Shown piece by piece: positions 3,001 through 12,738 of a stretch of DNA of 12,738 bases. How positions within the stretch are numbered: position 1 is the first letter of the stretch; each line of letters starts with the position of its first letter. This stretch comes from Campylobacterota bacterium (lineage in GTDB: Bacteria > Campylobacterota > Campylobacteria > Campylobacterales > Sulfurimonadaceae): NCBI GenBank assembly GCA_034717975.1, contig JAYEMF010000088.1, positions 1 to 12,738 of the forward strand, given 5' to 3'. Position numbers and translations under genes: made by a program. The notes below the pieces were generated by a model that did not search any database, was not told the DNA's origin, and worked only from the letters and a program-made list of their open reading frames with translations.

Positions 3001-5235
3001 GTGCCGACAAAAAGACGGTTTCGTTACATATATTTTTCAGTGCTCCTTTTCTGGACAAGTATTGTTGGCGTGATGTATATCACAATGATCAATATGGAGC
3101 AGGAGAAAGCGGAAGAGATAGGGATCAACACTGCTCGTGCCGCTTTGACACAAGATAAGATTTTCCGTTTCTGGGCTACTTCGCACGGTGGCCTCTATGT
3201 TCCCGTTACCAAAAAAACCCCGCCTAACCCCGCTCTTGCACATCTTCCCCACCGTGATCTGAATGTGGCCGACAAAAATCTGACGCTGATGGATCCCGCT
3301 TATGCACTGCGACAGATGATGAATGAGTATGAGGGGCTTTACGGGTTGAAAGGACACATTACCAGTCTGAAACTGCTCAATCCGAACAATGCCCCCGATA
3401 CATGGGAAAAAAGTGTACTTGAGGGTTTTGAAAATGGTATAAAGATAGAGGAAAAACATATTTATACGGAAAAAGGGACGGTCCCTGTTCTAAGGGTATT
3501 TGAGCCGCTGATAACGAAAAAAGGGTGTCTGAAGTGCCATGACTTTCAAGGGTATAAGGTTGGTGACGTCCGCGGCGGGGTATCGGTGACGCTGCCGATG
3601 ACCGAAATTTACGACAAAAAAGAGCAGAACATTATGAAGCTGATGAGTTTGCACGCTTTGGTCTGGCTCTATGGAGTCCTTTTCATCAGCTATTTTTACC
3701 GTAAGACGTTACAAAGTAACACTGAACAGCAGCAGCTCAATGAAGAACTCGTAAAAAAAGAACATTTTCTACGGACACTGATCGATACGGACAGCAATCT
3801 TATTATCACCAATTTTCAGCGAAACATTCATCTGGCCAACCAGGCTGCACTCGATTTCACCGGCTATGCCACGCTTGAAGCGTTCAAGAAAGAACATAAC
3901 TGCATCTGTGACCTTTTTGAAGAGAAAGAGAACTGCCTTCAAGAGCAGATGGGAGAGCTGTACTGGATCGAGTATGTATTGGCAACTCCGGAGCAGAGGC
4001 ATCATGTCTGTATGAAAAAAGGGAAGCGTGAACATATCTTCAATATAGTGGTCAAGCAGATGGATATGGAGGGAGAGGAGCAGTATATTGTCGTCTTTAA
4101 CGATATTTCCGAACTGCTGCACTCTCAGGAAAACCTGGCACTGGCACAGCATATTGCAAATGTCGGTCACTGGGAACTGGATCTGCAAAATAATGAACTC
4201 CATTGGTCGGATGAGGTTTACCGGATTTTCGGGGTTGACAAAGCGGAGTTCGATCTCAGCTATAAGGCGTTTATCGAGATGATCCATCCTGATGACCGGA
4301 CGATGGTTGACGAAGCCTATCAGGACTCCCTCGAAAGCCAAGAGGAGTATCGTGTGATCCATCGCATCATACATCCGGATACGCATGAAGAGAAGATCGT
4401 CGAAGAGCGGTGTGAACACTACCATGACAGTGAAGGCAAGGTGATCCGTTCACTTGGTACTATACAGGATATTACCGAACGCAAAAGACTTGAAGAGCAG
4501 TTGCATGAGAAAGAGGAGATGATGCTCGCACAGTCGCGACACGCCGCGATGGGAGAGATGATCAGCATGATCGCCCATCAGTGGCGCCAGCCTATTACGG
4601 TGATCGCCATGGGGGCCAACAATCTGCTGGCCGATGTCGAACTCGAAGATGTACAGCCTGAAAGTGTCAGGCAGAGTGCGGCGTTGATGCTGGAGCAGAC
4701 CCACCACCTCTCCAAGACGATCGACGATTTCAAAAACTTCTTCCGACCGAACAAAAAAACGGAGATGACTCTGGTCAATGATGTCCTGGAAGAGAACTTT
4801 TCCATTGTCGGCAAGAGTCTGGAAAATCATAATATCGCGGTAGAAAAAGAGTATAACAGTGTGACACCGATCCCCATCTTCTCCAGGGAGCTGCTGCAGG
4901 TCTTCATCAATATCCTCAAAAACGCCAAGGAGGCGCTGATAGAGAAGGAGATCAAAGAGCCGCTGATCTCGGTCGCTACCCGTGAAGATGAAGAGCATGT
5001 CTATATATCGATCTGCGACAACGGAAAAGGGATTGATCCGGCGATACTCGCAAAAATCTATGATCCCTACTTTTCGACAAAAGATGAGAAGATCGGTACC
5101 GGACTGGGACTTTATATGAGTAAAACTATCGTAGAAAAGCATTTGAAGGGTATAATAAAAGCAGAAAACCGCGAAGAGGGCGGTATCTGTTTTGAGATAT
5201 CTCTACCTAAAAAAGGAGTGTCAGACAATGAGTAA
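3001..5235 (+). CDS. Membrane sensor histidine kinase: periplasmic heme-c (DUF3365/Tll0287-like) domain, PAS, PAS, HisKA, HATPase
   Basis: Two hydrophobic helices flank a periplasmic region with HGGLYVP, ITSLKLLNPNNAPDTWE and CLKCH...GDVRGGVSV. PAS motifs VGHWELDL...WSDEVYRIFG...IHPDD...QDITERK. H-box IAHQWRQP, N-box NILKNA, DNGKG, PYFSTK and GTGLGLY. Confidence 0.93.
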   Translation: MPTKRRFRYIYFSVLLFWTSIVGVMYITMINMEQEKAEEIGINTARAALTQDKIFRFWATSHGGLYVPVTKKTPPNPALAHLPHRDLNVADKNLTLMDPAYALRQMMNEYEGLYGLKGHITSLKLLNPNNAPDTWEKSVLEGFENGIKIEEKHIYTEKGTVPVLRVFEPLITKKGCLKCHDFQGYKVGDVRGGVSVTLPMTEIYDKKEQNIMKLMSLHALVWLYGVLFISYFYRKTLQSNTEQQQLNEELVKKEHFLRTLIDTDSNLIITNFQRNIHLANQAALDFTGYATLEAFKKEHNCICDLFEEKENCLQEQMGELYWIEYVLATPEQRHHVCMKKGKREHIFNIVVKQMDMEGEEQYIVVFNDISELLHSQENLALAQHIANVGHWELDLQNNELHWSDEVYRIFGVDKAEFDLSYKAFIEMIHPDDRTMVDEAYQDSLESQEEYRVIHRIIHPDTHEEKIVEERCEHYHDSEGKVIRSLGTIQDITERKRLEEQLHEKEEMMLAQSRHAAMGEMISMIAHQWRQPITVIAMGANNLLADVELEDVQPESVRQSAALMLEQTHHLSKTIDDFKNFFRPNKKTEMTLVNDVLEENFSIVGKSLENHNIAVEKEYNSVTPIPIFSRELLQVFINILKNAKEALIEKEIKEPLISVATREDEEHVYISICDNGKGIDPAILAKIYDPYFSTKDEKIGTGLGLYMSKTIVEKHLKGIIKAENREEGGICFEISLPKKGVSDNE

Positions 5236-5626
5236 GCTGCAGCAACTTCAAGAGAGCATGGGTGCTCTTAAAGTGTTATATGTTGAAGATGAAGAGGGTG
5301 TACGTGAGCAGACGCTTATATTTTTAAAGAAGATATTTAAAAATATTGACAGTGCATCGAACGGGGAAGAGGGGTTGGAACGCTTTAAAGAGAAAGCGTA
5401 TGACCTTGTCATCAGCGATCTGAAAATGCCGAAAATGAACGGTCGTGAGATGCTGAGGCAGATTCATGAACTTGACAAAGATGCCGTTTTGATTGTTATG
5501 ACGGCATCGGACAGCAATATGGACGCTTCGGAGACGGTGTCGGATGCCTATTTAAAAAAACCGGTCATGTTTATGGATTTTGTCGAAGTACTAGAATCCA
5601 TGAAAGAGCGGCTGCAAAAAAGGTGA
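5228..5626 (+). CDS. Single-domain response regulator (REC only)
   Basis: VLYVEDE, phosphoacceptor SDLKMP, MTA and KKP motifs, no output domain. Start set at ATG 5228 (AAGGAG upstream), which overlaps the end of the kinase gene. Confidence 0.9.
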   Translation: MSKLQQLQESMGALKVLYVEDEEGVREQTLIFLKKIFKNIDSASNGEEGLERFKEKAYDLVISDLKMPKMNGREMLRQIHELDKDAVLIVMTASDSNMDASETVSDAYLKKPVMFMDFVEVLESMKERLQKR

Positions 5627-5638
5627 GGTGTCATGCAA

Positions 5639-5644
5639 TATAAT
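5639..5644 (+). promoter_or_regulatory. Possible internal -10 box for the HD-GYP gene
   Basis: Perfect TATAAT in the 59-bp intergenic gap. SD-like AGGAAG at 5675-5680. Confidence 0.4.
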
Positions 5645-5685
5645 AGTTTGCGCAAATTAGCCGATAACGGGAACAGGAAGTCTTC

Positions 5686-7212
5686 ATGGTAGATCTCATA
5701 ACACTGCAGTCACTGACTGGACAATTGAGTGTGCTCTATGTGGAAGATGACGTCGGTATCCGCAAAGAAGTAGAACGGTATCTCGCAAAACTTTTTGCTT
5801 CCTTTGATAGTGCCGAAAATGGCCAGCTGGGATGGGAGAAGTATCAAAGCGGCCATTATGATATAGTCCTTTCCGACATATCGATGCCCGTGATGAATGG
5901 ACTGGAGATGAGCAGAAAAATCCGTGAAGCCGATCAAAACCAGGAGATCATCATCGTTTCTGCCTATTCGAGCAGCAGCTATTTTGTCGAATCTATTCAG
6001 ATCGGTGTCAGCGGCTACATTATCAAGCCAATAGACTACAATCAGATGAAAGAGTCCCTCTACCGAAGTGCCGTCAAAATCAATGCGTTGAAAGAGGCGG
6101 AAGATTTTAAACTTCATCTTATTGACAAGGTAGAAGAACGTACTGCCGAACTCAATCAGGCGATCGAGGCTGAACGTCAGCTGCAGTATGAACGCATAGA
6201 TAATTATGAAAAAACCATCTTCTCGTTTATCGAGATGGTGGAACGCCGTGACACCTATACGGCCGGGCACTCCGAACGCGTTGCACGCTATTCAAAAATG
6301 ATTGCCATAGCAATGGGGCATACGGCTGAAGAGTGCGAAAAACTTTATCAGGCAGCCATGCTGCATGATGTCGGAAAGGTGGCGACACCCGATTCGGTGC
6401 TGCTGAAGCCGGGAAAACTGAATGATCTGGAGTTTAAACTGATCCAGGAACATGTAAGTACCAGTTACGATCTTCTGAAACAGATACCTATGTATGAAGA
6501 GTTGGCCGAAATTGTCCATTTTCACCATGAACGACATGACGGGAGAGGGTATCCAACGGGGCTCAAAGGAGATGAGATTCCGCCGTTATCCAGGATCATG
6601 ATCGTAGCCGATGCCTTTGATGCGATGACTACCAGCCGTATCTATAAAGGCCGGATGAGTCTGCAAAATGCGTTAAAAGAGATCGATGAGTTAAAGGGTA
6701 TTCAATTCCATCCGGATGTGGCGGAGAGCGCCATAGCGGTCTTCAAAGAGATTGAACTGGATGAGGGGGTCAATCAGCTTCCGGCAACGGAACTTGAGGA
6801 GGAGCGGTTCGCTTACTTTTTCAAAGATCCGCTTACCGATGTCTACAGCAAGAGTTATCTTGAATTTGTCCTGCTCAGAAACCAGGAGCAGAAGCGTTAT
6901 ACCTATATGTTCGGTCTCTTTATCGGCCACTTTACACATTTTAACGCCACATACGGCTGGGAACGCGGAGACAAGCTACTGGCTGATGTTGCCGAATGGT
7001 TAAAAAAGAGCTATCCCGATACCCTGGTATTTCGCATTCATGGCGATGATTTTCTGCTTTTGAGCGATGTAGCGTTAGATATAGATACGACAGCACTACT
7101 GGCTATGGACGTTGCCCAGGGCAGCGACATTACCATGCAGACACAACAGTATAGGCTCGATGAGCTTGCCATCAATCATGTGGATGATCTGGAAAGTGTC
7201 CTGTTACGCTGA
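5686..7212 (+). CDS. REC / HD-GYP c-di-GMP phosphodiesterase with a C-terminal degenerate GGDEF domain
   Basis: REC: YVEDD, SDISMP, IKP. HD-GYP: TAGHSERV, LHDVGK, HHERHDGRGYP, VADAFDAM. C-terminal DPLT...FNATYGWERGDKLL...RIHGDDF. Confidence 0.92.
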   Translation: MVDLITLQSLTGQLSVLYVEDDVGIRKEVERYLAKLFASFDSAENGQLGWEKYQSGHYDIVLSDISMPVMNGLEMSRKIREADQNQEIIIVSAYSSSSYFVESIQIGVSGYIIKPIDYNQMKESLYRSAVKINALKEAEDFKLHLIDKVEERTAELNQAIEAERQLQYERIDNYEKTIFSFIEMVERRDTYTAGHSERVARYSKMIAIAMGHTAEECEKLYQAAMLHDVGKVATPDSVLLKPGKLNDLEFKLIQEHVSTSYDLLKQIPMYEELAEIVHFHHERHDGRGYPTGLKGDEIPPLSRIMIVADAFDAMTTSRIYKGRMSLQNALKEIDELKGIQFHPDVAESAIAVFKEIELDEGVNQLPATELEEERFAYFFKDPLTDVYSKSYLEFVLLRNQEQKRYTYMFGLFIGHFTHFNATYGWERGDKLLADVAEWLKKSYPDTLVFRIHGDDFLLLSDVALDIDTTALLAMDVAQGSDITMQTQQYRLDELAINHVDDLESVLLR

Positions 7213-7236
7213 AAGAGAGAAACTGGAGTGAGAGAG

Positions 7237-7836
7237 ATGCTCAAAACACAAAGAGCGATAGTAGCAGCAGTGTTGCTCTTTTATATTTTTCAGGCTTTTG
7301 GGTATGCTCATGAAGGTGGGGGAGAAGCAGGCTTTTCAAGCGGAATATTGCATCCGGTCATGGGATTTGACCATGTTGTCGTCATGCTTGGTGTCGGGTT
7401 CTGGGGATACCAGATCGGCAGACCCTCTCTCTGGATATTGCCGCTTGTCTTTTTAGCGGCGATGCTTTCGGGAGCGGTATTGGGCATTTTCGGTATGCCG
7501 CTGTACAGTGTAGAGATTGTCATTGCATTTTCCGGGATTGCCATGGGACTCTTTATAGCTATGGATGAGCGCTACCCATTATGGCTCTCGATACCGGTGG
7601 TCGCTATCTTCGCACTGTTCCATGGTTATGCCCATGGCGTTGAATTGCCGTCTGCTGCCCACCCTCTCATGTACATTACAGGTTTTTCCATCATGACATC
7701 TTTACTGATGGCTTTGGGCATCGGACTGGCCAATGTGTTAAAAAAACCTTCTTACAAAGGTGTGGGGACACGCATCGTCGGCATATTGATTACCATTATA
7801 GGCGGTCTCTTCCTGAGCAATATCCTGATGAGTTAG
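7237..7836 (+). CDS. HupE/UreJ family Ni/Co transporter
   Basis: Signal peptide ending AYA-H, then GILHPVMGFDH and FHGYAHGVELP motifs with multiple TM helices. ATG 7237 is preferred over GTG 7228 because GGAG lies 8 nt upstream. Confidence 0.9.
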   Translation: MLKTQRAIVAAVLLFYIFQAFGYAHEGGGEAGFSSGILHPVMGFDHVVVMLGVGFWGYQIGRPSLWILPLVFLAAMLSGAVLGIFGMPLYSVEIVIAFSGIAMGLFIAMDERYPLWLSIPVVAIFALFHGYAHGVELPSAAHPLMYITGFSIMTSLLMALGIGLANVLKKPSYKGVGTRIVGILITIIGGLFLSNILMS

Positions 7837-7857: not shown

Positions 7858-8289
7858 TTAATTGTAGGAGTAGCTCCAGCCTGTAAGACTATCGCGTTTA
7901 GTCTGTTCAAAATCGCTCGAATCGCCAAGAAAATCGATAACGTGAAGCGGAACATGCGGGATGGTGCGTTGATCTTCCGGTTTTACGAGGTGCATCGGCA
8001 TCGGTGTCTCCTGTCTGGTTTCAGCGAAGGCTACGGCTTGAAGTGCACTCATCACATGGGCGGTGTTGATGATGTTGTACTGTTCGCAAAACTTCTCAAA
8101 TACGGCACCTTTTATCTCTTCAGGCAGTGCTTCGTGCGTATTTAAAAAGATGGTGAAATGGATCGGTGTCTCTTTGAAATGGTCGGGTGATGGTGCCGCC
8201 ATAATGATGTACTCGACACCTGCTAGTTTGGCTTGAATCTCATCGGGGGTGAAATAGTGTTTGGTTTCCAGTGCTTCATGTTTTTGCAT
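7858..8289 (-). CDS. Hypothetical cytoplasmic protein (143 aa)
   Basis: Fills the gap between the convergent HupE/UreJ gene and the GGDEF-EAL gene without overlap. Protein-like composition and a promoter-like motif upstream. No family recognised. Confidence 0.75.
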   Translation of the reverse strand: MQKHEALETKHYFTPDEIQAKLAGVEYIIMAAPSPDHFKETPIHFTIFLNTHEALPEEIKGAVFEKFCEQYNIINTAHVMSALQAVAFAETRQETPMPMHLVKPEDQRTIPHVPLHVIDFLGDSSDFEQTKRDSLTGWSYSYN

Positions 8290-8329: not shown

Positions 8330-10252
8330 TCAGTCGGCTTTATTCAAGAGGTCAAATAGATCAAAACTTGGTTTTCCCAGATAGTATCCCTGGACATAAT
8401 CGATTTCCAGCTCTTTGACGGTCTCTAACTCCTGTTCCGTCTCAATCTGCTCCGCCACCGTGATGATATCCATCCGTTTGGCAAAGTCGTTGATGGTCTG
8501 AACAATATGGTAGGCGTTATCGTTCGTATCGATGTCACGGATCAGAGAACCGTCAATTTTAAGGATGTCGATACCAAGGTGCACCAGGTATTTGAAATTG
8601 GCGTAACCGCTTCCGAAATCATCCAGTGCAATTTTGACGCCGAGTGATTTCAGCAGATCGATACGCTGTCGAATAAGATCGAAGTTGGTGATCTCTGCCG
8701 TCTCCAAAATCTCAAAGGTGAGTCGGTTTGTCAGGTCGGAGTTTGACATCAGCAGCGATGTGATCATGGCCATGATGTCATTGTTGAAGACATCCTGCAG
8801 TGCCAGGTTGATACTCAGTTCTACCGGCTTCTCCTTAAGTGTCTGCAACGCAATGCTGAGGACACGCTCGGTTACTTTGATATAAGCCTGGGTGTTGGCA
8901 ATGGCCGGCAGAAAGTCATCCGGTGTAACGACTGTACCGTCTTGTTCCAGAAGTCTGACAAGTACTTCAAACTTTTTCAAAGAGAGATCATCTGTTTTAA
9001 ACATAGGCTGATAGACGCAGTGTATCCGCTCTTCGAGTATGGCGGTTTTGACATCCTGAATACGTTTGGTCGTATTGCTCTGCAAGGAGAGCTTTTCATC
9101 GTTAGAGATCTCTACTCTGTCGCGTCCGCTGGATTTTGCTCTGTAAAGCTGCTCATCGGCAATTTTGATGGCCTCATCGATATTTTTGGCGTATCCCGGG
9201 TAGGGGTTGATACCGATAGAGAGTGTCAGTGTGATGTTATGCTCATTGGCTTTGATAGGACGCTCTTTAATGCCTTCCTGGATACGGTCGGCGATGCTTT
9301 TACAGGTGACGACACTCTTCTCCTTGAGCAGGAGCAGAAACTCTTCGCCGCCGTAACGGATGAGAACATCCTGGTCACGGATCTGTGACTTGATCCTGCC
9401 GCTGGCTGCCTGGAGCACGATGTCGCCCACATCATGACCGTAGATATCATTGATCCGCTTGAAGTGGTCCAGGTCGATCAGAAGCATCTGGTACTGGTCG
9501 ATGTTGTCATTATTGAGCAGCTCGGCAAGGTATTGGCGGTTGTAGGTTCTGGTCAATGGGTCGTGCAGGCTCCGTTTGCGGCTGAGATAGTACATGATGA
9601 ACTGTACATAGGCGGTGACAAGCATGATTATCATAAAGATCGATATATAGAAATAGAGGTTTTTCAGCGGAATGACGGCTTCATCGATATATCTGCTTTC
9701 ATCATTGGAAAAGTCCGCTCCCAGCAGAGCGACAATTTTCCCGTTTACGATGATGGGCAGTGCATAGGTTATCCAGAGCGTATCGACTTCCTGCTGCTCT
9801 ACCTGCGGTTGCCTGGTTATGCGTGCAACTTCCCAGATATCAGTCTGCGGGTCAAACTTTTGACCGTATTCGGCCCGCTCCTCTTCATCCTGGGAACTGT
9901 CGAGAAGATAGCGCAGTTTTTTATCTTCGTAGTCATAATAGAGCATATAGAGATATTTGAGTTCCCTGGTAATGAGCAGAGACATTTCATTTTCGTAGTG
10001 GTGACGCAGGTCAGGATTTTTTTGCAGCATTAAAACCATCTCGTCACCAAGCTCTTTATGTATGTGCTCTGAGAAGTTTTGAAACAGTTTCGCTTTTTTT
10101 TCAAGGAGATCATTATAGATTATCTGATGGATCTCATCGGTTGTCTGCTGATACTCCTGGTAAAGATAGATCGATATCCCTGTCAAGATCGGCAGGATCA
10201 GCAGCAGCATAAGAAAAGGTTTCCCAAACTTTGACGTCAACTGCATGGTCAC
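8330..10252 (-). CDS. Inner-membrane diguanylate cyclase/phosphodiesterase (TM, periplasmic domain, TM, GGDEF, EAL)
   Basis: Two TM helices. GGDEF domain: DPLT, IDLDHFKRINDIYGHDVGD, I-site RDQD, RYGGEEF (GGEEF at 9338-9352). EAL domain: EVLVR, SIN, FEILE, LDDFGSGY, KIDGS, VAEQIE, QGYYLGKP. Start is GTG 10252 (overlapping the upstream TGA) or ATG 10246. Confidence 0.94.
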   Translation of the reverse strand: MTMQLTSKFGKPFLMLLLILPILTGISIYLYQEYQQTTDEIHQIIYNDLLEKKAKLFQNFSEHIHKELGDEMVLMLQKNPDLRHHYENEMSLLITRELKYLYMLYYDYEDKKLRYLLDSSQDEEERAEYGQKFDPQTDIWEVARITRQPQVEQQEVDTLWITYALPIIVNGKIVALLGADFSNDESRYIDEAVIPLKNLYFYISIFMIIMLVTAYVQFIMYYLSRKRSLHDPLTRTYNRQYLAELLNNDNIDQYQMLLIDLDHFKRINDIYGHDVGDIVLQAASGRIKSQIRDQDVLIRYGGEEFLLLLKEKSVVTCKSIADRIQEGIKERPIKANEHNITLTLSIGINPYPGYAKNIDEAIKIADEQLYRAKSSGRDRVEISNDEKLSLQSNTTKRIQDVKTAILEERIHCVYQPMFKTDDLSLKKFEVLVRLLEQDGTVVTPDDFLPAIANTQAYIKVTERVLSIALQTLKEKPVELSINLALQDVFNNDIMAMITSLLMSNSDLTNRLTFEILETAEITNFDLIRQRIDLLKSLGVKIALDDFGSGYANFKYLVHLGIDILKIDGSLIRDIDTNDNAYHIVQTINDFAKRMDIITVAEQIETEQELETVKELEIDYVQGYYLGKPSFDLFDLLNKAD

Positions 10253-10656
10253 TCTATATATTTATTGAACGATGGATGCAGCGTGAGGTTATGCTCTTTC
10301 AGGCTCAGTGCATCGAAAATAATATTGGGACGCCCTTTTTGCCAGAAAAAAGCACCAAAGACTTCGGGATGTTTTTTAAACACTTTGTATCGTGTGGCAA
10401 AGAGCAGCTTTCCGCGACAGGAGTCGGGCAGGTTTTGTATGGTGCTTGCAATAACGAAGTCCGCTTCTTCACACTTCAGGGTTGTTGTTATAGTGCTATT
10501 GTGGCGCAGCTCCTTAATATCTCCGTGCAGGTAGATTTTCGGATTTTGTTTTTTGGTACACTCTTTGGCAATAGAGAGGTGGATTTTCGCTGCCAGCTCC
10601 GCATCTGAGGCAAAGAGATTAAAGCCGATCAGCAGGGTAAGGAGCAGCTTTTTCAA
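10249..10656 (-). CDS. Small exported protein (135 aa), possible periplasmic adaptor
   Basis: Start reassigned to TTG 10656, which overlaps the receptor stop (TTGA) and has GGAG 8 nt upstream. This gives the signal peptide MKKLLLTLLIGFNLFA-S. Three Cys and a C-terminal GAFFWQKGRPNIIF motif. Confidence 0.82.
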   Translation of the reverse strand: MKKLLLTLLIGFNLFASDAELAAKIHLSIAKECTKKQNPKIYLHGDIKELRHNSTITTTLKCEEADFVIASTIQNLPDSCRGKLLFATRYKVFKKHPEVFGAFFWQKGRPNIIFDALSLKEHNLTLHPSFNKYIE

Positions 10657-12578
10657 AACAGGTACTCCATCCCCGCCCAGAATCGGCGCTCGATGACAGG
10701 GACATTTATACTGTTTCCGGGGGCAATGTAGTAGTCCCACATCAGACCGTCATCAAAGATGTTTTCCCCTTTGACATTGAACTGAAGATCATCGCTGGCA
10801 TGATAGATGATACCGGCACTGTAGTCATGCCCATTTGACTGATCGTGATACCCCTCCTGTATCAGCAGTTCATTGAAAAGATCAAACCTGCCAAAGGTGT
10901 TGAGCATCCTGATCACCCCGGTATGGTGGCGGAGATCATGGTTACCTTCATAAGGGGACTCAAGAAAATAGCTCCAGGCCTGCAGCTCGAGTTTGTCTTT
11001 CTCACGGAAGAAAAAGGTTTGCTCGATAGCTGCGGAGTGGCCGTAAATACTTTTATCGCTATTTTGCATAGTGAATGTTGCCGGATCGAGGATCGGTATA
11101 TCCCGGTTTTTACCGTATCCCAAAACAAGTTTGGTCAGTGATATATCTGTTTGATAACTGACCTCCTGGAAGATAGATTGATAACTCTCTTTGTTCAGAT
11201 CTTCGTTACCGTAGTGCGGGGAGATGGTCATATAGGGTTCTGACGCAAATTCCTGATGGGAGAGAAAGGTTTTAGCTACCCAGTTGTCATTAGCATAGAT
11301 ATAGCCCAGACGACGTTGAAAGGTGTCCTGATCGTCAACACTGCTGTGCTTTCGATGGTAATGCTGATACATTAGTGAGAGGGTCAGCATCTGATTTTCG
11401 TCGATGCTGTAGTTGTCTTGTAAAAAAGCGGAATAGACATCTTCAGAGTAGTAGGCCTGTGAAATAGGTGGCAAGGCACCTATGGCAGGTGAGGTGAGTG
11501 TAAGGTCGGTCAGGTCAAAATGTTTGTGACGAAATTTAATACCGCCGGTCAGGGTGTGCTTATCTAAAGACCACTTTTTTTTCAATCCGGCTGTATAACT
11601 GTCTTCTCTGAGTTCTTGTTTGTGCTGGGTGATGGGAATCAAAGGCAAGGAAGGGCTTGTTGCGGGATCGGAGTTGACAATAAGTGCCGGATCGGTTGCC
11701 TGCCAGCCAATGTCAAAGTCACTGATATTTTGCAGGAAGATGAGGTTGAACGTGAGGCTTTTATCCTGAAAGGTTGAGTGCAAAGAGGCACTGAAATAGC
11801 GATTTTTCAGTTCAGACTCTTCTGCAGTTGCTCCCACTATGCCACCAATGAATCCATCACCTTTTTGATGGGATCCATGCAGTTCGATCTGATGGTTATC
11901 GGTAGCAAGTGATGCATAAACACGTTCTGTCCGTTTATTTCTTTTGGCATCTCTGCCGTCATGCGTGAACTCTTCACGTTGATTGTCTCGCCTGCTGGCA
12001 TAGGTGAAATAGTTGAAGTCCTCAAGCTGATCGGCATAATACCCACTGAGAGTGTTGGACCCATAAGAACCATACAGGGCTTTGATCTTTCCGCCGGTAT
12101 CATGTTCTGCTGTTTTACTGTAGAGACGAATGACAACCGTAGCCGGTTCCGTACCAAAATCAAACGAGGGAAAGCCCTCATAGATCTCGATATGGTCGAT
12201 AAAGTCAAGTTCCATATCGCCAAAAACGAAAAATCCGCTTCCGGCCAAAGGATTGAAGAGTTCATGATCGTTGAGGTAGGTGCGTATTGACTTGCTGTAG
12301 TTGCTGAGGGGGTCCTGATTGAGTATGTCCGGCTGTCCAAAGCGGTTTTCGGCATACTGAAAAAAGCGAAGTGATTTTACGATATCTTTGAGGGTCTGAA
12401 CTTGCATCCGCTCCAGGTCGTCACGTGTGTAGACAATGAGATTCCCGGCTGCTTCATCTTTGGTTTTGTGGGAGAGTTCCGAGGCTTTTTCATAGGCTCC
12501 AAGCAGCTGGTCGATCTCTTGCGCTTGAAGGGGAGTAAAGAGTATAAATAGCAGTAAAAGTAAAACAGTTTTGAGCAT
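10653..12578 (-). CDS. TonB-dependent receptor-like outer-membrane protein (plug plus beta-barrel)
   Basis: Signal peptide ending LQA-Q. Plug-like motifs IVYTRDDLERM..TLKD and FIDHIEIYEG..SFDFG....VVIRLYSK. Amphipathic beta strands, KGENIFD near the end, and a C-terminal EYLF beta-signal. SD TAAGGT upstream. Confidence 0.88.
   Translation of the reverse strand: MLKTVLLLLLFILFTPLQAQEIDQLLGAYEKASELSHKTKDEAAGNLIVYTRDDLERMQVQTLKDIVKSLRFFQYAENRFGQPDILNQDPLSNYSKSIRTYLNDHELFNPLAGSGFFVFGDMELDFIDHIEIYEGFPSFDFGTEPATVVIRLYSKTAEHDTGGKIKALYGSYGSNTLSGYYADQLEDFNYFTYASRRDNQREEFTHDGRDAKRNKRTERVYASLATDNHQIELHGSHQKGDGFIGGIVGATAEESELKNRYFSASLHSTFQDKSLTFNLIFLQNISDFDIGWQATDPALIVNSDPATSPSLPLIPITQHKQELREDSYTAGLKKKWSLDKHTLTGGIKFRHKHFDLTDLTLTSPAIGALPPISQAYYSEDVYSAFLQDNYSIDENQMLTLSLMYQHYHRKHSSVDDQDTFQRRLGYIYANDNWVAKTFLSHQEFASEPYMTISPHYGNEDLNKESYQSIFQEVSYQTDISLTKLVLGYGKNRDIPILDPATFTMQNSDKSIYGHSAAIEQTFFFREKDKLELQAWSYFLESPYEGNHDLRHHTGVIRMLNTFGRFDLFNELLIQEGYHDQSNGHDYSAGIIYHASDDLQFNVKGENIFDDGLMWDYYIAPGNSINVPVIERRFWAGMEYLF
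10655..10703. repeat. 49-bp direct repeat shared with 12640-12688 (3' ends of the two receptor paralogues)
   Basis: 47/49 identical by manual alignment, including 29 consecutive identical bases GCCCAGAATCGGCGCTCGATGACAGGGAC. Confidence 0.9.
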
Positions 12579-12637
12579 ATCTATTTACCTTATCGATAAT
12601 CTATAGTAACTTTATATAACTTTCATAAATATAAAAA

Positions 12638-12738
12638 TTAAAACAGGTACTCCACCCCAGCCCAGAATCGGCGCTCGATGACAGGGACTATGACACGGTT
12701 GCCAGGGGTGACCATATAATCCCACTCCAGTCCGTCGT
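12638..12738 (-). CDS. 3' end of a second, paralogous TonB-dependent receptor-like gene (runs off the window end)
   Basis: Manual translation DGLEWDYMVTPGNRVIVPVIERRFWAGVEYLF* is 24/32 identical to the C-terminus of 10653-12578. Confidence 0.88.
   Translation of the reverse strand, partial: DGLEWDYMVTPGNRVIVPVIERRFWAGVEYLF

Follow-up and report, generated by a model that had tools for sequence, protein, structure and literature searches.

Cell-surface signalling of the FecIRA type uses a receptor with the fold of TonB-dependent receptors (TBDRs) as its sensor. Here, we analyze a candidate trans-envelope system of another build, in which a TBDR-like barrel, a small periplasmic protein and an inner-membrane enzyme for turnover of the biofilm messenger cyclic di-GMP (c-di-GMP) are encoded side by side on a 12,738-nt stretch of DNA from a bacterium of the Sulfurimonadaceae (Campylobacterota; hereafter the window, which is the entire contig C88 of the source genome G000). 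Among the closest described systems, the gene cluster of Cycloclasticus sp. P1 encodes the TBDR PahS, the 318-aa periplasmic binding protein PahP and the kinase PahK; PahS is reported to bind PahP and PahP to bind PahK directly, and PahK is described as having no sensor domain in the periplasm (Wang et al. 2023, PMC10570129). In YfiBNR of Pseudomonas aeruginosa, the same face of YfiR is contested by YfiB and YfiN, and YfiNR pairs lacking YfiB, with modular outputs (kinase, GGDEF-EAL), have already been noted (PMC3375315, PMC4655355); the main text of PMC3375315 never names TonB. NCBIfam furthermore holds models for a receptor/YfiR-like pair of Thalassolituus, NF053590 (TOL_0244-family receptor) and NF053591 (TOL_0243-family YfiR-like protein), and the accessible part of the proteomics paper cited for them (PMC6304351) makes no mention of YfiR. 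OmpS of Alcanivorax dieselolei (Wang and Shao 2014), 40% similar to TOL_0244, is described as a TBDR-like surface sensor that triggers chemotaxis (PMC6304351, PMC5174103, PMC9788540), and the accessible part of a paper on a single-domain substrate-binding protein of Rhodothermus (PMC10805632) mentions neither TonB nor YfiR. No study of the small-protein family presented here or of a barrel-YfiR pair was found in a literature coverage that mostly excluded subscription journals and supplements.

The three genes of the operon lie on the minus strand and encode, in this order, a plugged beta-barrel of 641 aa (10653..12578), an exported protein of 135 aa (10249..10656, TTG start at 10656) and an inner-membrane GGDEF-EAL enzyme of 640 aa (8330..10252; 638 aa from an ATG at 10246). 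A first-pass annotation of the window had described them as chained by two 4-bp stop/start overlaps, and this is what the sequence reads: plus-strand positions 10653-10656 are tcaa, corresponding to TTGA with the receptor stop TGA and the small-gene start TTG, and positions 10249-10252 are tcac, corresponding to GTGA. The second overlap is less certain, since the ATG at 10246 is in frame two codons past the GTG of the enzyme gene and would turn the overlap into a 2-nt gap. A 163-aa form of the small protein starting from a GTG at 10740 was discarded because the close homologues have 134-138 aa. In homologous loci, the TTGA overlap of receptor and small gene recurs in 84 of 124 cases and a 4-bp overlap of small gene and sensor in 40 of 108. 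Promoter and terminator scans remained at chance level (9 vs 7.5 and 4 vs 3.7).

Conservation of this gene order was assessed in 134 loci, comprising 70 of the 74 small-gene matches of a phylum-wide profile search, 10 further matches and 54 loci of named records; removal of six duplicates left 128 small genes. All loci were thus picked via the small gene, and their host genomes are kin. The receptor is located directly upstream in 124 of the 128 loci, the same sensor domain directly downstream in 110, and all three genes stand in order in 108. In the first, narrower set, the receptor was present in 25 of 27 loci, with the exceptions L018 and L024 being outside the 128. The output of the sensor varies: among the 110 sensors, 77 end in GGDEF-EAL, 19 in GGDEF and 10 in a histidine kinase, three are cut by contig ends and one is broken, so that the expectation of an invariable c-di-GMP output had to be abandoned. 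The 18 loci without the sensor downstream are made up of two contig ends, two with another receptor, two with a kinase bearing a different sensor, nine with genes that resemble HAD-like hydrolases by their motifs, and three unclear cases. In L035 and L104, the histidine kinase behind the receptor/small pair has a periplasmic domain that is shorter and of another kind, so that the sensor domain itself can be exchanged. In L039, L148, L150, L152, L153 and L158, receptor and small gene precede a tightly spaced HAD-like protein of 153-160 aa in place of the sensor.

Across the phylum, the small-protein profile matched 62 of 401 genomes, with no match among the 158 genomes of family f12 and one noisy match among the 118 of family f26, two large families that are probably host-associated. 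The receptor profile (E<=1e-40) matched 58 of the 401 genomes, all of them among the 62 with the small gene; of the four remaining genomes, two are truncated at contig ends, one is a noise match and one holds an orphan. Named records of the small protein are nearly all from Campylobacterota and include the cultured free-living Sulfurimonas autotrophica, S. paralvinellae and S. indica. The three-gene operon is therefore real and conserved in free-living sulfur bacteria. Weak small-gene matches in G101, with internal stops, and a second match in G119 were taken as noise. Second small-gene copies that are orphans with a decayed GAFFWQKGRP motif were seen in L096 and L097, as well as in L094 and L095; the receptor is retained at the L094 copy and lost at L096 and L097.

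The small protein adopts a single-lobe, YfiR-like alpha/beta fold that resembles one lobe of the binding proteins of ATP-binding cassette (ABC) transporters, and carries the signature GAFFWQKGRP at residues 101-110 and a Cys62/Cys80 pair that is common, but not universal, among its homologues. Its identity to YfiR is approximately 10%. Sequence searches against PDB, Pfam and NCBIfam gave no credible match, and none of 57 small proteins matched the YfiR (DUF4154) models PF13689, NF053586 or NF053591. Of the comparison to YfiR/DUF4154 suggested by the first-pass annotation, the fold thus stands and the family membership does not. A search with the single protein returned 72 homologues, mostly of 134-149 aa. 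The profile search yielded 301 clusters at 50% identity, 272 of them at E<=1e-10, and with its sharp edge this set describes a closed family; the best 150 profile matches are all no longer than 165 aa.

The membrane enzyme consists of a transmembrane (TM) segment, a periplasmic PDC/Cache-like domain, a second TM segment, GGDEF and EAL. Its catalytic motifs are intact, with GGEEF and an RxxD I-site in the GGDEF domain and EVL and DDFGSGYA in the EAL domain. The sensor domain has a WalK-like PDC fold with a conserved RYLLDGS-like stretch; dCache_1 was matched by 10 of 96 sensors and CHASE8 by none, nor did PF17152 match at this locus. There is no HAMP domain in the enzyme, the GGDEF domain beginning seven residues past the second TM segment.

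The receptor shows the N-terminal plug and the beta-barrel ending in an aromatic residue that are expected from TBDRs, supporting its designation as a plugged barrel. Pfam assigned the plug with an E-value of 2.8e-5 and the barrel with 6.2e-6, a profile match to BtuB was obtained at E 1e-6, and TBDR clusters in the Atlas were matched structurally with a TM-score of 0.85-0.89. With signal peptides called by eye, the layout is a signal peptide at approximately 1-19, a helix-patterned tail at 22-44, a plug at approximately 45-155 and a C-terminal Phe, the latter present in 148 of 149 receptors. No FecA-type N-terminal extension was found, in agreement with the first-pass annotation, as a median of 44 residues precedes the conserved Gly45 in the 149 receptors. 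The tail of about 21 residues directly follows the signal peptide, is constant in length in 148 of 149 receptors and is conserved as strongly as the plug, both exceeding the barrel; among 96 receptors, L25 is found in 91, L26 in 93, S36 in 90, T39 in 95, E42 in 89 and G45 in 96. No alternating TonB-box-like strand is present in this tail. In the same genome, seven receptors with no YfiR-like neighbor on record, the neighbor of the cut C120 gene being left out of account, start with alternating, TonB-box-like stretches (by eye), and three others, on contigs C28, C62 and C53, each followed by a DUF4154-like gene, start with leucine-rich tails resembling that of the 641-aa receptor. The alignment of the C28 receptor to the latter spans the entire length, tail included (probability 99). 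A position-specific scoring matrix of the tail separated the groups weakly, with p<0.05 for 3 of 10 YfiR-linked receptors and 0 of 7 others. These additional receptor/DUF4154-like pairs are located at C28:39-4936, C62:5708-8217 and C53:1305-3941; a membrane PAS-GGDEF-EAL protein is encoded behind the C28 pair and no sensor gene behind the C62 pair. At C39:27338-31116 (minus strand), the gene of a receptor whose start resembles a TonB box overlaps that of a 624-aa membrane protein with a sensor-like N-terminus. A PAS-GGDEF gene comes next, and no small gene lies between receptor and membrane protein.

The second receptor suspected at the right edge of the window proved to be real. Positions 12638..12738 (minus strand) hold the stop codon and 3'-terminal part of a tandem paralogue, as judged from the open reading frame (ORF) and a DNA alignment, and window positions 12612-12738 are 100% identical to nucleotides 1-127 of contig C35, an exact contig overlap. 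The full paralogue on C35 (1970-27) has 647 aa, is 66% identical to the 641-aa receptor and ends 59 nt ahead of its start. Tandem receptors were also seen at L030/L118, L104, L113 and L114, and L116 has the order receptor-small-receptor-small-sensor.

Pfam detected no ABC, TonB/ExbBD or extracytoplasmic function (ECF) sigma/anti-sigma gene among the window's 10 main ORFs, as had been stated in the first-pass annotation; TonB is encoded elsewhere in the genome. Of the 66 genomes that bear the module, 59 gave a TonB_C match, including the source genome, and seven did not. In four genomes of family f14 (G049, G082 and G094 on single contigs, G096 on eight; 99-100% complete), neither TonB_C, TIGR01352, PF13103 nor a TonB protein query gave a match, with the source genome as positive control, and the trios are intact in all four. 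Each of them has one ExbB/ExbD-like pair besides MotA, which in the two genomes inspected is followed by genes that we take, from sequence features, to be TolA-, TolB-, Pal- and CpoB-like. The trio receptor is the sole Plug match in three of the four, and no barrel-family match was found in these genomes. The barrel thus persists in genomes in which the searches revealed no TonB transport system, and TonB energy is probably not required for signalling.

Building on the gene order, co-occurrence, folds, motifs and TonB-negative hosts directly established for the trio, we consider it rather probable, by analogy to YfiBNR, that a YfiR-type adaptor is shared between the barrel tail and the PDC domain, with a surface cue shifting the balance. 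The operon would then encode a trans-envelope signalling module without a sigma factor, in which the YfiR-fold protein acts as adaptor and is distributed between the PDC domain of the enzyme and the periplasmic side of the barrel, where it would most likely dock at the N-terminal helix conserved at residues 22-44. A surface cue, presumably a ligand at the barrel loops and plug, would move plug and tail and thereby alter the amount of adaptor held at the outer membrane. The freed or held adaptor would toggle the GGDEF-EAL enzyme between synthesis and breakdown of c-di-GMP, or a kinase in other hosts, and the sign of regulation would be repression if YfiR is a guide. Mutual information in paired alignments of 96 triples (approximately 73 effective) showed no coherent cluster of contacts. 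Correlations of 0.81-0.88 between distance matrices were not counted as evidence because they are expected from shared descent. A bolder version, which we put forward tentatively and with rather less confidence, is that these plugged barrels form a TonB-independent class and are now pure conformational sensors, in which an amphipathic helix replaces the TonB box and captures a YfiR-fold adaptor; a surface cue would then govern c-di-GMP or a kinase without transport, energy coupling or sigma factor.

Three other explanations were weighed against the shared adaptor. If the trio worked like PahS-PahP-PahK, the barrel would pass a small molecule, driven by TonB or passively, the adaptor or PDC domain would bind it, and the adaptor would be a ligand shuttle rather than a sequestered repressor. 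The Cycloclasticus relay is reported to operate in this way (PMC10570129), and the resemblance of the small protein to one ABC-binding-protein lobe, the often ligand-binding PDC/Cache fold with its conserved stretch, and the presence of TonB in most hosts fit as well. However, a single lobe of 119 residues offers no two-lobed cleft comparable to the 318-aa PahP, the four f14 genomes combine intact trios with no detected TonB, and the receptor lacks a TonB-box-like strand, so we regard a carrier relay as unlikely, albeit the strongest of the three. Less likely still is that the barrel is a mere outer-membrane anchor and that what is sensed, without an external ligand, is the assembly of the outer membrane, the spacing of the membranes or, via the adaptor Cys pair, periplasmic redox, as proposed for YfiB/YfiR. 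YfiBNR is reported to react to envelope and redox state (PMC3375315), tail and plug are the most conserved parts of the receptor, and 78 of the 128 adaptors have exactly two Cys; against this, 24 of the 128 have none, and the diverged receptors in tandem, here and at other loci, suggest several inputs onto one adaptor.

We consider it improbable that the operon is only co-regulated, merely bringing together in one transcript the genes for a conventional transporter, for a chaperone of the barrel or an accessory protein that binds the plug, and for a sensor enzyme. While receptor and small gene do occur without an adjoining sensor in 16 of 124 loci, the sensor domain stays constant while outputs swap, the window holds no inner-membrane uptake gene, the barrel is kept in hosts without detected TonB, and the small protein has a YfiR-like fold.

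With regard to the described systems, the layout is not categorically new, and the remark in the first-pass annotation that no characterized example was known is superseded: a barrel/periplasmic protein/kinase relay was already tested in Cycloclasticus, and a receptor/YfiR-like pair is catalogued in NCBIfam. As described, PahS-PahP-PahK(-PahR) shares the three-gene order of receptor, periplasmic protein and inner-membrane signalling enzyme and does without an ECF sigma factor; compared by description, it differs in the two-lobed PahP, where the trio has a single YfiR-like lobe, and in a kinase without periplasmic sensor, where the trio has a PDC sensor with mostly GGDEF(-EAL) output. In YfiBNR, as described, a YfiR-like periplasmic fold is likewise placed between a component of the outer membrane and a cyclase that has two TM segments and a PAS-type domain in the periplasm. 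However, the trio has a plugged barrel upstream instead of the OmpA/Pal lipoprotein YfiB, with no OmpA match in the window, its sensor departs from the CHASE8-HAMP-GGDEF architecture of YfiN, and the small protein shares the fold of the YfiBNR/HmsCDE proteins but not the DUF4154 sequence family. The proposed YfiBNR-like logic is partly supported, by fold, gene order and intact catalytic motifs, but not by the type of sensor. The TOL_0244/TOL_0243 pair has the same gene order and compartments, and NF053590 is the best NCBIfam match of the receptor; yet the two receptor paralogues score only 24.5 and 27.4 bits against a curated cut-off of 645, and NF053591 has no match anywhere in the source genome. 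Unlike FecIRA, the trio lacks an N-terminal signalling (STN) domain and a TonB-box-like strand, the window contains neither an anti-sigma nor an ECF sigma gene, and the genes downstream are PDC sensors. OmpS, likened by description, is a further protein of TBDR-like type for which a role as surface sensor is reported. The fresh point of this trio is its likely TonB independence.

Elsewhere in the window, a plus-strand cluster at 3001-7212 encodes, by Pfam, a Tll0287-like/PAS histidine kinase, a single receiver and a receiver-HD-GYP protein with a degenerate GGDEF tail, and thus forms a second c-di-GMP unit convergent with the operon. A gene for a HupE/UreJ-family metal transporter (7228-7836, plus strand) lies between both signalling clusters. 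On the operon strand, a 143-aa ORF (7858-8289) follows the enzyme gene at a distance of 40 nt; it has no Pfam match and no credible NCBIfam match.

The route from surface cues to c-di-GMP enzymes in Gram-negative cells is mostly unknown. The trio is small and compact, its middle part is invisible to Pfam and NCBIfam, and it occurs in cultured free-living Campylobacterota as well as in genomes without detectable TonB. It makes it possible to test cleanly whether barrels of the TonB type can signal in the absence of TonB and whether they feed input into proteins with a YfiR fold. Our results suggest that part of the proteins annotated as TonB-dependent receptors serve sensing, not uptake. If plugged barrels indeed act as pure conformational sensors, they would also provide the input from the outer membrane that is missing for YfiR-like proteins without YfiB.
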